From: a virus
Taxonomy: Duplodnaviria > Heunggongvirae > Uroviricota > Caudoviricetes
DNA: 43,830 nt
IMG/VR virus record: IMGVR_UViG_2839610755_000005
Strand: one strand, 5' to 3'
The position numbers are program-made. Shown here in pieces: positions 21,001 through 27,000 of the stretch. The number at the start of each line of letters is the position of its first letter. Within the stretch, counting starts at the first letter, position 1.

Positions 21001-24000
21001 GGACTAAGAACGCAATCGCGGCAGGATGACACCACATCATCCAGGGTGAGATTTAATTTATCGCAACGCAGAGCCAGAGGGATGGCAATCCGGGTTCCTG
21101 TTTTTTGCCGTTCGACATGAAGATAACCATCCCGGATATCCGAAAATTGCATTTTGCAAATATCTGAAAGGCGCTGGCCTGTCATCAGTGCCAGCAGCAT
21201 ACCGCGCTGTAAAAAGTAACCATCCTTTTCCGCTGCGTTATAAATCATCATCCACTCATCAAAAGTCAGTCGCTGTCTTGATATCCGTACCTGCGGTTTT
21301 TTTGCAGATTCTGCAGGGTTAAAGCCTGGCGGGACATCGCCCGTTTGCTGAGCTTCCCGGAAAACATCGATCAGTACTTTCCTGAAAATTTGTCCCATTC
21401 TGTTATGTCCTCTGGCCTTGTACTCTTCCAGTACTGATACCACATCTTTTACGGTTATGGCATCTAACGGTCTGGTGCCAAAACGTTCATCAAATACCCT
21501 GAGAGGGGCCGCTTTCTGTTTCAGCGTGTTGAGTTTGATCTCGCCGTTTTCATATCTTTCCTGTTGAATTTTTCTGTAATTATTCAGAAAAATGGTAACG
21601 GTTGATGAACCGCCGGTATCACTAATAATTTTCTCCTGCAGACTGAGCATTTGTTCCATTTGCTGCCGGGCAAGACGGCTGTTCGCTTCTGCTGCAATAG
21701 TTTCTGCCAGTTTCTGGTCAATACTGCCGAGACCGTGATTTTTGCCTGTTATGGGATGCCTGTAACGCCAGTAAACTTTGTTATTTCTTTTGTCAAAATA
21801 CGGAGATAATCCCGGAACATCGGTTTTATATTTTCGCGGGCGCGCCATCTTCCAGTATCCTCTTCAAAGCAGGGTGATCTGTGGCGATCACCTCCGGCTT
21901 GTTTACCATTCCGACAAAGCGAGCTTGCGGATCCACTCGCCAGCGTCTTCCAACTTTTTTGGGGAGAGGAAATATCATTCCGGCTTTAGCGTATTTACTT
22001 AACGTACTCGGAGTAGGGACCGGTTCACTGAATTCCTCTTTTGCCCACTCAGTGAGCAGAATAAGTCTTGCCATGAGCGTCGTTCGCTAATCATGGTCGC
22101 CGCCACTATAGCTGGTGGGCAACGACCGGGGTTGAACATTAAAAATCAGCCTGATTCGGGATCAGTTTTTGCCAGATAGCTGAAACGTATTTTGCCTGGT
22201 AACGAGCGTCATCCAGCGCATTGTGGCGCTCACCTTCGAATGGGATAGCAGTTCTGGCATCGAAGTCTATGGCTTTCCCCAGCTCAACGATTGTGCGTAC
22301 ATCGCGATCGTTGTAGTAACGCCACGGGCAGGGGATCCCCTGCCGTTCGTATGAACGGCGCAAAATCGTGTTGTCGAAGTTGGCTCCATTTCCCCAGACC
22401 TGAACAAAAAATTCACCGGAGTTTTCGTCGATAAATTCCCGCAATTGTAACAGTGCATCATCTAACGGGATTTCATCGGTCATAATGGCAGATTGCGCTT
22501 CGCGTGATTGCTTAAGCCACCATTTAATGGTGTCCCGATCAATGACTCCGCCAGCAGTTTCCAGATCGATAGTCTTACTAAATTCCGGTCCCATATCTCC
22601 GGTTTGCGGATCGAAAAATATTGCACCTATTGAGATAATCGGGGCATCAGGATTTTTTCCCATGGTTTCAAGGTCGATCATTAGATGGTCACACGTCCTG
22701 CTGGTGGATGTGATAATGCGATGACCGTTCACCGTAATTAAGGGATCTGCCGTCTCGCCAGTTTCACTATCGCTGGCGTGGTCCTGAGCGCTGCCAGCAT
22801 TCTCCTTGTGTGGATGTTCAGCGCCTTCCATTTTCTCCGAATCGTCTTCCTGAACTTCAACCAGGTTCTTGTCATCGAATGTTTCCTGGTATGTTGCGTC
22901 GCCCATCACCGCGCCACAATCAGGGCAGTTGCCGCCACTCCTCTGACCGCAGGCGGTGCAGATCTTTTCCGGTTCCTGTTGCACTACTGGTTCAGGTTGT
23001 TTCGTTTCTGGCTCGTTTTGTTGCGTATTTGGGCTGTTCTGTTCCGCTTTCTGGTCGTTCTGTTCCGTTTCTGGCTGATTCTGGTACACAGAATCGCGGG
23101 TCTGGATCCCCTTAATCCATTTCGGATCATTCGGGTCGCTAATCCCTTCAACAAATTCTCCGCGAGAGGCAGCCAGTAATTTGTCTGCATCGACAGGATT
23201 TTGGGGCGGAATGTTTTTCCGGGCTTCATGGAGTTCTGCCCGCAGTTTCTGATATTTCGCATCAACAGAATTTATCTGTGGCTGAGCATCCATCGACTGC
23301 GTGTCCTGATTATGTTCAGTTGTATCCGGTTCCACTGCTTCAGTCGTTGCCTGTTCATCTGCCATTGCGCCAGATGGCTGCGGTTTTTCTTCATCATCCT
23401 GTTTTCCTTCTTTTGTTACACGCTGCGGCATTGGAGCAGAGGAGCGACCGCAGGCAATATCCACGATTTCTGGATCAGGGTTGGCATGGTCGGTTTCGGT
23501 CAGTACTTTGTTCAGATATTCGGTAACACGGTGGGGAGTAGCCTCGATACCAATTGGTGCTTCTTTCACGGACGCAACCACTATCGCGCGGGAATAATCC
23601 AGGTGACCAGGCATGGCGATGAATTTGTCACGAAAAACAGAAAAGGGCGGCTTATTCTCTGAAACGATTTCTTCAATGCGTTTGGCGTGTGCCGGATGTG
23701 GATTGTAAATATCGATGTCCATTGAACGGGCCAGAACGCCAGCGGCAACGTCACGTTCCACTGACGCATCATCGTGGACAAAACCTTCACCGCGATCGGT
23801 AAGAATTCCTCCGCCAGCATTAGCGCCGGATGGCGTGCGGCTGATGCGTAAAACACGATTTCCTTTCATCCACTCTTTTGTCAGCAGACCTCGATCGGTA
23901 TAGTCAGCGTCCAGGTATGCTTCGAAAAAAGCAGTCATTAACCCCAGACTGGAATTAACGGGATTAGGGAAAACTTTGTCTGTGTCGCGTACCAGTTTGT

Positions 24001-27000
24001 GAAGGTCGCGAATCTCCAGCGGGTCGAGCAGCTTTGTGTTGTGGGAAATAGCCAGGGCAGTAACAGCAGGCAGTTCTTCAGCTCGTGCGATATGTAATGC
24101 CTGAAGTTCTTCCCGTGAAACGTGCGTTACCGGTTTTTCGCTGCCATGTTGCGCAAGCCAGCGAATGGGCAGTTCCTGACCGGAAATCGGCAGGAGCATA
24201 TTATCCTCAATCTCAGCCATGTCTTCGCCATTGACGTTGGTATTGTCAGTGCTGGCTGGTTTGTCCTGAACTGAGGGGGAAGGCGCTATAAATATCATTG
24301 TGATGCCATCTTCTCCGCCTTTTTCATAGCGGTTGCAGAATTCAGTATCGAACACACCTTCAGGCGGCAGGTCATTAACAATGGGCAAATTCACGCGAAC
24401 AGGTTTTTTGAAATCCTCTTCGTCAAATCCAGCATCGTCCATTGCGACAACACCCCGTGATATTGCAACCGATAATTTTTTTGCTGTGCGCCAGTAAAAA
24501 CCGCCTTTAATCCCAAGGCGTTTTCTGACTTTGTCATTTTTGGCTTCGTAATACAGTGCAATTTCTTCTTTATCAGTGCTCATTGATAAACCTCATAACT
24601 ATTTTAAGGTTGTACGAATCCCTGCTATTGCTGGCATGCTTAATCAACGGGTATGGCGTTAATACGGCTGGCGGGTTATCCAGCCGGTATTTCGTTATTC
24701 AGGTACAGCGATACTTTGTTTAACGGGAGACATTCACCGGAAATTTTTTGCTCGTCTCTTGCCTGATGGCAGGATTCTTTACTGGCATAAATTCCGGTAA
24801 TCACATTCTGTGGCTCACCTGTTATAAGAAAAACCGTCATCATCAGTGCAAACGCTGAACTCACTGCTGCCCTCCGAAAATGCCAAGTTCAAGAAGGGCA
24901 ATTCTGGAGAGTATGGAATTATCATTGAGAAGATAAGGCTCATATTTTCTCATCCTGATGGCGTCTTCAGTAAACTCCCGGTTACTGAGCAGAATACCAA
25001 TATTAAAACACCCTTCAGACGTATTAACGTTTGGTAGTGACGTTTCCATTATCGCGTCCTCAACAATGAATTTTGTGATGCGGTGCCTGGTGCCTCCAGG
25101 TGACGTTAACCAGTTAACAATTAACGCCGGATACAGAGAATCCACCCATAACACTGTTTTTGGTTTTAACTGTTCCGCGTGCGCTCAGCCGCATTCACCA
25201 CATCACAAAATTCACTTTAAAAAGGGCGGCAGAGCAGTCACGGAGTAAAACTGATACCGCCAAACGTCACCAGAAAATTGATAACAGAGGGCGTTGCAGC
25301 GGGGTTGTCACTTAAGCGTATGGTCAGCCTGACAACCCGGTGTCCTCAAGGGGAAGGAATAACCCCGCCATACTTACCGCCGCGCCATTTCGCGGATTGC
25401 CACAACCAGAAGCGCACGGTCGAAGAAATTTAACGGCAAGACTTATATGCAAAGGGATCTCGCCGTGCGCTTTCGTGTTATGCCCTGACTTTTCAGGGTA
25501 AATTAACCTGTGGAAACCTGTTTTTACTGGCGCTAATCAGTTAGCGTTTCTGGCTAACCAGCGATGCGCGGCAGCTTCGGTTTTAAACGTTTTACTTTTG
25601 GTATACGTCATCGCGGTAAACGTGCCGTCCTGATTGGGAAACACGCCACATACCAGAGATTCGTTGTTGCCAAGATTGAGCGTATCCATGTTGACCTCAT
25701 TTGCCCTTAACGCCGGGGGGGGCGGAACTAAGACCTGTCGCACCGTTGTGCTTTGATGGGATATATTGTTCTCTTAAGATGAACATATGTCAACATTGTG
25801 AATGCGCAAGAGGCAAAAAAAACCGCCTTCCGGCGGTATTGTTTTGTAAAATAAAGAATTATTTTTGTCGCGTTATTGGGTCAACGTATTCTGAGTAAAA
25901 TTCGGTCAGTTTTTGAAGGCGCATTTGAAAAGCTGCCAGCATATTTCTACGCTCTACAGGTGGCAGGTTTCTGTAAACATCAAGCAGGGCTTTCTCATCA
26001 TCATCAAGCGCCTCTCTGTTTGTATCTTCTTTTCCTGTCAGTAGCCAGGAAAGGGAAACATTTGTCGCTTCTGCAATTTTGGCTGCGGAATCTTTACTGA
26101 TTGTCCCTCTTTTTTTCCAGGCGTTGACTGATGAGCGTCCTACACCAGCGATGCGCGCTAAATCTGAACCGCTTAAATGATGCTGTTGCGAGATCGTATC
26201 TAACCTTTCTGCCAGCGGGGTGTCGTATTGCTTTTTTCTCATGTCCATTTAGCAATTATAACCGTTCAGTGAACACTAACAATTCCTCGTAGTGTTGACT
26301 TATGTTCTCTTTAAGTGAACAATGTTGTGGCTGATTGAATTGGAGGTTGTATGACAGCATTGGACAAGGCAATAAAGATTGCTGGTGGTATTCGTCCGCT
26401 AGGGCGTGCAATAGGGGCTTGGCCGTCTCAAATACACAAATGGGCAAATGAATACAATGGTCGAGTGCCGACAGGGGAGCGGGTTCGTCAAATTTATATT
26501 GCAACTGGGGTGACTCCTCATGAATTGCGACCAGATTTATATCCGAATCCAACCGACGGGTTGCCTGCTGGAGATAAGGCTAACACACAAAATACACCGG
26601 AGTTGATTCATGAAAATCAAGCATGAACACATCCGCATGGCGATGAATGCCTGGGCGCGTCCTGATGGCGAAAAAGTTCCAGCAGCTGGAATAACCCAGG
26701 CTTATTTTGAGTTGGGTATGACGTTCCCAGAACTGTATGACGACAGCCATCCGGAAGCCCTGGCTCGCAATACCCAGAAAATTTTCCGCTGGGTAGAGAA
26801 AGACACCCCTGATGCTGTTGAAAAAATGCAGGCTCTGTTACCGGCGATCGAAAAGGCGATGCCGCCTTTGCTGGTGGCCCGTATGCGCAGCCACAGTTCT
26901 GAATATTACCGTGAGATCGTCGAACGGAGGGATCGGCTGGTGAAGGATGTCGATGATTTTGTTGCGTCAGCGGTTGTTTTGTATGACCAGATGAATCGCG

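Follow-up and report, generated by a model that had tools for sequence, protein, structure and literature searches.

The window analysed here is the whole 43,830-nucleotide (nt) stretch of the IMG/VR virus record IMGVR_UViG_2839610755_000005, and it corresponds to a prophage of Escherichia coli O157:H7 at ompW, of lambdoid/Rac-like type and bordered by an ompW remnant. Its minus strand carries the gene of an 814-residue exonuclease, the subject of this work. As shown in Table 1, the features follow one another on that strand in the order CI/DicA-like repressor gene, ydfA-like gene, DicF, dicB, ydfD-like gene, exonuclease gene, xis and int. The locus is a Qin-type dicB operon, as in E. coli K-12, and the exonuclease gene comes last among the large genes of the dicF-dicB-ydfD operon, with xis and int directly behind it. 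In K-12 Qin this operon is repressed by DicA and gives rise to the host-toxic products DicF, DicB and YdfD (PMC11430063). A candidate sigma-70-like promoter is found just downstream of the terminator of the repressor gene, and a scan with the sigma-70 consensus detected no dedicated promoter directly upstream of the exonuclease gene. An original prediction, made from the sequence alone, had described the product of this gene as a possibly domain-swapped protein with RecE-like N-terminal two thirds, a DnaQ-type C-terminus with a zinc ribbon, and no recT partner. The limits that it gave for the gene were exact, with 814 codons between an ATG start, preceded by a GAGG located 8 nt upstream, and the stop, and many chromosomes of E. 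coli O157:H7 carry a 100% identical gene, that of WP_000102181.1.

Table 1. Features of the dicB operon and of its exonuclease, with positions in the window. Residue numbers are those of the exonuclease. AF2, AlphaFold2; pLDDT, predicted local distance difference test; ORF, open reading frame; sRNA, small RNA; HTH, helix-turn-helix.
Feature	Position	Strand	Basis or remark
Integrase gene; prophage end abuts ompW remnant	20718..21848	-	annotation
Excisionase gene (Pfam Exc), directly downstream of exonuclease gene	21826..22074	-	Pfam, annotation
814-residue RecE-N::DEDDh exonuclease ORF	22139..24583	-	RefSeq WP_000102181.1, annotated 'exonuclease'
Predicted DEDDh 3'-5' exonuclease domain, residues 630-810 (D637, E639, D737, H787, D792)	22154..22696	-	Pfam, alignment, AF2
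Acidic disordered linker, residues 560-627, holding the domain junction	22703..22906	-	RecE homology ends at 617 (window 22733)
Zinc-ribbon-like motif CxxC-x7-CxxC (C542, C545, C553, C556)	22916..22960	-	also in Rac RecE
Helices, residues 438-473, flanked by acidic disordered linkers	23165..23272	-	AF2 model
Central helical RecE-N domain, residues 190-392	23408..24016	-	AF2, pLDDT above 90
PF06630 Exonuc_VIII match, residues 56-189, non-catalytic part of RecE	24017..24418	-	Pfam
N-terminal alpha/beta domain of RecE family, residues 1-103	24275..24583	-	AF2, pLDDT about 97
ydfD-like gene (DUF1482), directly upstream of exonuclease gene	24676..24864	-	Pfam, annotation
dicB, cell-division inhibitor gene	24861..25154	-	Pfam match covers last 62 codons of the ORF
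DicF sRNA, between ydfA-like gene and dicB	25224..25275	-	Rfam RF00039, 76.7 bits (gathering score 48)
ydfA-like gene (DUF1391), first of the operon	25537..25743	-	Pfam, annotation
Candidate operon promoter, sigma-70-like TTGACA-17-AACAAT	25765..25793	-	consensus match only
CI/DicA-like HTH repressor gene, product without peptidase domain	25859..26248	-	annotation; PMC2669165

The N-terminal two thirds of the protein belong to the RecE family, as had been proposed. The Exonuc_VIII profile PF06630 was matched with an E value of 4e-34, and residues 1-617 align to positions 1-603 of the 877 of NF007259, the NCBIfam equivalog profile of RecE, although with a score (1094 bits) that falls below the curated cutoff of 1269 bits as nothing in the protein matches the C-terminal third of the profile, which corresponds to the RecE nuclease. 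By BLASTP, the identity to RecE of phage Rac-SA53 is 62% over residues 58-617, where the alignment ends, and residues 218-617 are around 88% identical to Rac RecE. In addition to the PF06630 region, the central domain and the zinc ribbon of the RecE N-terminal region are present. In the AF2 model these parts are separated by acidic disordered linkers, at residues 104-135, 395-437, 491-538 and 560-627. A search of the Protein Data Bank (PDB) with the central domain returned no sequence relative. This domain contains a conserved motif at residues 249-268 (window 23780-23839, with SGANAGGG at 252-259) that is kept in most members of the family, is missing from certain alleles and has no known homolog. 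The CxxC zinc ribbon of the original prediction does exist (the cysteine motif spans residues 542-556), but it lies outside the C-terminal exonuclease, in the RecE-homologous part, and is shared with Rac RecE; its region was modelled at moderate confidence, and its match to the Pfam family DZR is weak (E value 0.068).

The C-terminus belongs to a different family. The Rv2179c-like family PF16473 matches residues 633-804 with an E value of 2e-67 and a score of 226.7 bits (cutoff 27), covering positions 2-177 of the 177 in the profile. Judged by these scores, the domain assignments along the protein are far above chance. The motifs announced for the C-terminus are all present, as DLET (637-640), WGNGANFD (730-737) and HNALDD (787-792), and they supply the Exo I DxE (D637/E639), the Exo II aspartate (D737) and the Exo III H-x4-D (H787/D792) of a DEDDh nuclease. 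The domain shows the RNase H-like alpha/beta exonuclease fold, with a pLDDT above 90 in the model of the full-length protein, and its sole sequence relatives in the PDB are 8KEL and 8KEN (E value 1.6e-6), both of them phage T4 DexA (PMC12153337). The five catalytic residues are invariant in the alignment with DexA and the stand-alone homologs, and they are highly conserved over a wider set of 116 homologs (D637 in 108 of 112, E639 in 106 of 111, D737 in 114 of 116, H787 and D792 each in 113 of 113). By profile and motifs, the C-terminus is assigned to the DEDDh 3'-5' exonucleases, so that the label DnaQ-type was right and can be refined to the branch of that superfamily formed by Rv2179c-like proteins and T4 DexA.

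By contrast, the PD-(D/E)XK 5'-3' nuclease of RecE is absent from the window, as the identity to RecE stops at residue 617 and the C-terminus of RecE gave by tblastn against the window E values of at least 0.59. The original prediction had named a RecB-like C-terminus as the finding that would speak against it, and the domain search returned PF16473 instead. The exchange of a RecB-like nuclease for a DEDDh domain behind a RecE-family N-terminus is therefore borne out. The crystallised nuclease domain of K-12 RecE, attributed to Zhang and colleagues in 2009, reportedly starts at residue 606 of 866. The junction at residue 617 lies in the last disordered linker, close to the start of that domain; elsewhere the RecE nuclease domain is delimited as residues 564-866 (PMC11611040).

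The lack of a recT partner was also confirmed. In the 43.8-kb window, tblastn detected neither RecT nor the RecE nuclease domain, RalR or YdaC (all E values at least 0.008), and in the identical region of strain FRIK2455, from the methyltransferase gene to int, RefSeq annotates no annealase. The neighbours of the exonuclease are DUF1482, DicB and Exc proteins, with no single-strand annealing protein adjacent to it. In the comparison with Rac, both genes occupy the same slot of the early-left operon, just before xis and int, and their products share the N-terminal 600 residues or so, with PF06630, central helical domain, zinc ribbon and acidic linkers. In Rac-SA53, however, this slot holds recE-recT-ralR-ydaC, whereas in the window recT, ralR and ydaC are absent and the exonuclease carries the DEDDh domain in the place of the PD-(D/E)XK nuclease. 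The arrangement dicB-ydfD-exonuclease-xis-int recurs in prophages located at ompW, yccA and potC, with differing integrases, and in the four prophage contexts it was never accompanied by recT.

The exonuclease gene is intact and under purifying selection, and not a decayed remnant. When it was compared with homologs from three other prophages, the ratio of nonsynonymous to synonymous substitutions (dN/dS) was 0.11-0.16 for the nuclease domain and 0.11 for residues 1-217; it rose to 0.30-0.36 in the central domain, present here as a divergent mosaic allele, and was higher in the linkers. The homologs of strains 06-00048 and ATCC 25922 closely resemble the window protein over residues 1-217 and 471-814, and residues 218-400 correspond to a different allele (nonsynonymous divergence, pN, of 0.37), the one that matches Rac RecE at about 88%. 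Each of the four genomes inspected in detail has an intact ORF of about 813-824 residues, and full-length proteins of 814 residues account for most of the 120 closest clusters in the database, with a search for full-length homologs returning proteins at least 98% identical only. Of 5426 complete E. coli genomes, 1252 contain a homolog that spans 80% or more of the gene, and O157 genomes have 7-8 places each that match it. Fusions of the RecE N-terminal region (RecE-N) to a DEDDh domain were also found in Citrobacter, Kluyvera and Atlantibacter. The chimera is no isolated case, but a common and conserved prophage gene of Enterobacteriaceae, already annotated as 'exonuclease' or '3'-5' exoribonuclease'.

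The matches within E. coli fall into three classes, which reveal a mosaic family. The first covers the whole gene, the second only nt 339-1847, corresponding to true recE, and the third only nt 1400-2445, approximately. The proteins of this last class have 823 residues and combine a different N-terminus with the helix, zinc ribbon and DEDDh part of the window protein, to which they correspond from about residue 465 up to 814; the breakpoint lies at about residue 465-471, and this sister class forms a cluster of 23,183 sequences. The K-12 Qin pseudogene ydfE has the same position in its operon (dicB-ydfD-ydfE-int) and matches the first 256 residues of an 823-residue sister '3'-5' exonuclease' at 99% identity, by which ydfE is recognised as a remnant of the sister class truncated by the insertion sequence IS2. 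It differs from the window gene in this truncation and in the N-terminal region of its class. Stand-alone versions of the nuclease, of 180-190 residues and 60-88% identical to the window domain, were located just before xis-int in prophages of E. coli and Salmonella. An exhaustive search with residues 1-617 gave 236 clusters at 50% identity, from which 83 representatives of at least 400 residues were classified by their C-termini: the DEDDh domain was found in 14 and the RecE nuclease in 24, a further 25 stop after the linker or have a different tail, and 8 contain a third module of about 260 residues, for which no match was found in Pfam or the PDB.

The characterised proteins closest to the nuclease domain are DexA and EcD, both of which act on DNA (PMC12153337). 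T4 DexA is a stand-alone protein of 227 residues with extra loops, encoded by a lytic phage, and the window protein differs from it in its 617-residue N-terminal extension and in having Y757 at the position of DexA W152. EcD is a stand-alone DexA homolog of E. coli, as the window domain is a fused one, that cleaves DNA containing 5-hydroxymethylcytosine (5hmC) and protects against T4 ('HREX'; described in 2025, PMC12153337). The defence signature of HREX consists of a tryptophan at the W152 position together with loss of D90 (PMC12153337), and EcD accordingly has an alanine at the D90 position and keeps the tryptophan. In the window protein the tryptophan is replaced by Y757, an alignment that is robust because the adjoining N-x-RD-V-RT motif is conserved, and D90, a tetramerisation residue of DexA, is kept as D709, so that on these residues the protein would resemble HREX at the catalytic level only. 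At the W152-equivalent position (codon 757, window 22313-22315), 115 homologs show Y in 42 cases, W in 25, C and T in 13 each, H in 6 and R in 5, and at the D90 position they show D in 90 and A in 7. For the acidic HREX residue DexA D169, the counterpart may be A771, which MAFFT pairs across a loop with a 3-residue gap, or one of the adjacent D773 and D775, the latter being D in 84 of 114 homologs.

We related EcD to this family through its primers and residue numbering, and not through a sequence alignment, so that the link is circumstantial. The start MIDTET derived from its primer and the residue A78 fit the register of stand-alone homologs, among them P0105, whose identity to the nuclease domain of the window protein is 60%. 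Neither the N-terminal peptide IDTET nor the presumed C-terminal peptide PETYD of EcD was present in any of the 240 proteins retrieved, and a scan of viral contigs with the EcD reverse primer gave one match, which was discarded as a chance match at an unrelated locus. The founder of PF16473, Rv2179c from Mycobacterium tuberculosis (RNase AS, PDB 4HEC), is more distant from the window domain than DexA. It is a small cellular exoribonuclease without RecE scaffold and without prophage context.

These data lead us to propose that the gene encodes a modular prophage nuclease that destroys linear DNA upon derepression, rather than a recombinase of the RecET type, a reading that we consider probable as a whole, though by no means assured. 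From its motifs and its position, the protein is most likely a DNA exonuclease of 3'-5' polarity that depends on Mg and is synthesised on derepression of the prophage. It would be produced once the DicA-type repressor is lifted, along with the other host-toxic products of the operon, and would use a two-metal mechanism to shorten DNA strands from free 3' ends, with D637, E639, D737 and D792 binding Mg2+ and H787 acting as general base. The polarity predicted from the DEDDh fold is opposite to the 5'-3' resection of RecE, and the expected products would be 5' overhangs or completely degraded DNA, and not the 3' tails needed by annealases; as a 3'-5' exonuclease would remove the very tails that annealases use, the gene does not appear to form part of a RecET-like module. 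The RecE-derived scaffold presumably supplies whatever it may contribute to RecE, be it targeting or oligomerisation. The target might be linear DNA of the host or of a competing phage, as for T4 DexA and EcD, and a DexA-like degradation of DNA during induction is favoured because the gene sits among toxic genes of the derepression phase. Several points weigh against this proposal. The polarity, the preference for DNA over RNA and the timing of expression are all deduced from homology and gene position, and the putative read-through from the upstream promoter is argued from the K-12 Qin operon and from a match to the promoter consensus. Moreover, an annealase could act in trans, as O157 encodes RecT on Sp10 and Bet on its Stx phages (PMC2669165).

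A role in defence or superinfection exclusion of the HREX/EcD type, with the DEDDh domain degrading the incoming DNA of T-even-like phages that carry 5hmC or other modifications, is the strongest competitor of this proposal, but on balance we regard it as unlikely. The activity of EcD points in this direction, as do the prophage location of the gene and its high frequency in E. coli, and the hypervariability of the W152-equivalent position is the pattern expected if specificity had diversified, so that this position may have a role in recognising differing DNA modifications. Nevertheless, the presence of Y757 and D709 is at odds with the required tryptophan and loss of D90, and the gene is located at the distal end of a toxic operon that in K-12 Qin is repressed in lysogens. 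In PADLOC-DB 2.0 the exonuclease matched only a generic CRISPR-associated DEDDh model (E value 1.7e-5) and its neighbours matched none, and the 617-residue RecE scaffold would be left unexplained. The original prediction had offered the label recombination/anti-defence, which found no support here: the expected 3'-5' polarity without an annealase argues against a RecET-like recombination, no evidence for anti-defence was found, and the EcD result is the only one that points to defence.

We consider quite improbable that the protein is an exoribonuclease trimming or degrading the 3' ends of RNA, for instance host transcripts or the DicF precursor, as the name of the Pfam family suggests. A DNA substrate is more likely than an RNA one, because DexA and EcD, the closest characterised relatives, are deoxyribonucleases and because the scaffold comes from a DNA enzyme.

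Very improbable, in our opinion, is a recombination exonuclease that works with an annealase supplied in trans, such as the RecT of Sp10 or the Bet of Stx phages, or with the RecA of the host, the scaffold providing the contacts with the partner or with DNA ends. The occupation of the recET slot of Rac-like prophages and the identity of the scaffold to Rac RecE are in its favour, and it is the full-length RecE, and not the nuclease domain alone, that enhances linear-linear recombination (PMC11611040). Such genes were in fact counted as an 'Exo VIII-type recombination system' by Asadulghani et al. (PMC2669165). On the other hand, the single-stranded 3' tails on which annealase pathways depend are removed by a 3'-5' exonuclease, and an adjacent annealase is missing in the four prophage contexts. 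RecT is furthermore reported to bind the nuclease domain of RecE, precisely the part that the window protein lacks.

Finally, it is hardly credible that the gene is a defective remnant, in which a RecET module was wrecked by illegitimate recombination and is passively carried in decaying prophages, for although six of the seven Exo VIII-type systems of Sakai were scored as defective by Asadulghani et al. (PMC2669165) and the positional equivalent in K-12, ydfE, is a pseudogene, this explanation is largely refuted by the intact ORFs, the conserved catalytic residues and the low dN/dS of the nuclease, and further by a junction that falls in a disordered linker at a natural domain boundary and by independent fusions in several genera.

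Both domains are known families, and the architecture is already found in the precomputed annotations of Pfam and in RefSeq names; a literature search with the Pfam names and accessions retrieved no paper that deals with the RecE-N::DEDDh architecture. The seven Sakai prophages with an 'Exo VIII-type' system were described as having it intact only in Sp10 (Asadulghani et al. 2009, PMC2669165), a description that is revised by the data on selection, prevalence and recurrence. If the proposal of a derepression-phase nuclease is right, the 'Exo VIII-type, mostly defective' genes of enterohaemorrhagic E. coli (EHEC) would be a distinct and selected nuclease with a polarity opposite to that of RecE, and the recently proposed theme of DexA and EcD would extend to a fused form that abounds in E. 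coli. The natural exchange of three C-terminal modules on a single scaffold would likewise provide a comparative handle on the unexplained N-terminus of RecE, of relevance for linear-linear recombineering, although nothing fundamental would be changed by these findings. A bolder generalisation, which we put forward as a conjecture and rather doubt, is that the N-terminal 600 residues or so of RecE are an autonomous and exchangeable delivery scaffold for PD-(D/E)XK, DexA-like and third (around 260 residues) effectors, and that the DEDDh versions, which at least roughly a quarter of E. coli genomes contain and of which O157 has up to 7-8 copies, make up an overlooked class of prophage nucleases aimed at foreign or host DNA ends and not at recombination.

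Other features of the window were recorded outside this operon. The segment 12199-19418 lies between the int-side ompW remnant and what, by ORF sizes only, appears to be the tail-gene end of a neighbouring prophage, and it contains genes for type III effectors, of the nleG family at 15840-16487 (minus strand) and 18768-19418 (plus strand) and espM1 at 16671-17261 (plus strand), in addition to remnants of IS66, IS630 and IS3. Further matches to Rfam corresponded to the sRNA STnc100 (36807-37007, plus strand), the anti-GcvB sRNA AgvB (37010-37071, minus strand), the sok antitoxin RNA beside hokD (31706-31880, plus strand) and an ALIL frameshift pseudoknot of the IS3 family (2202-2318, minus strand).

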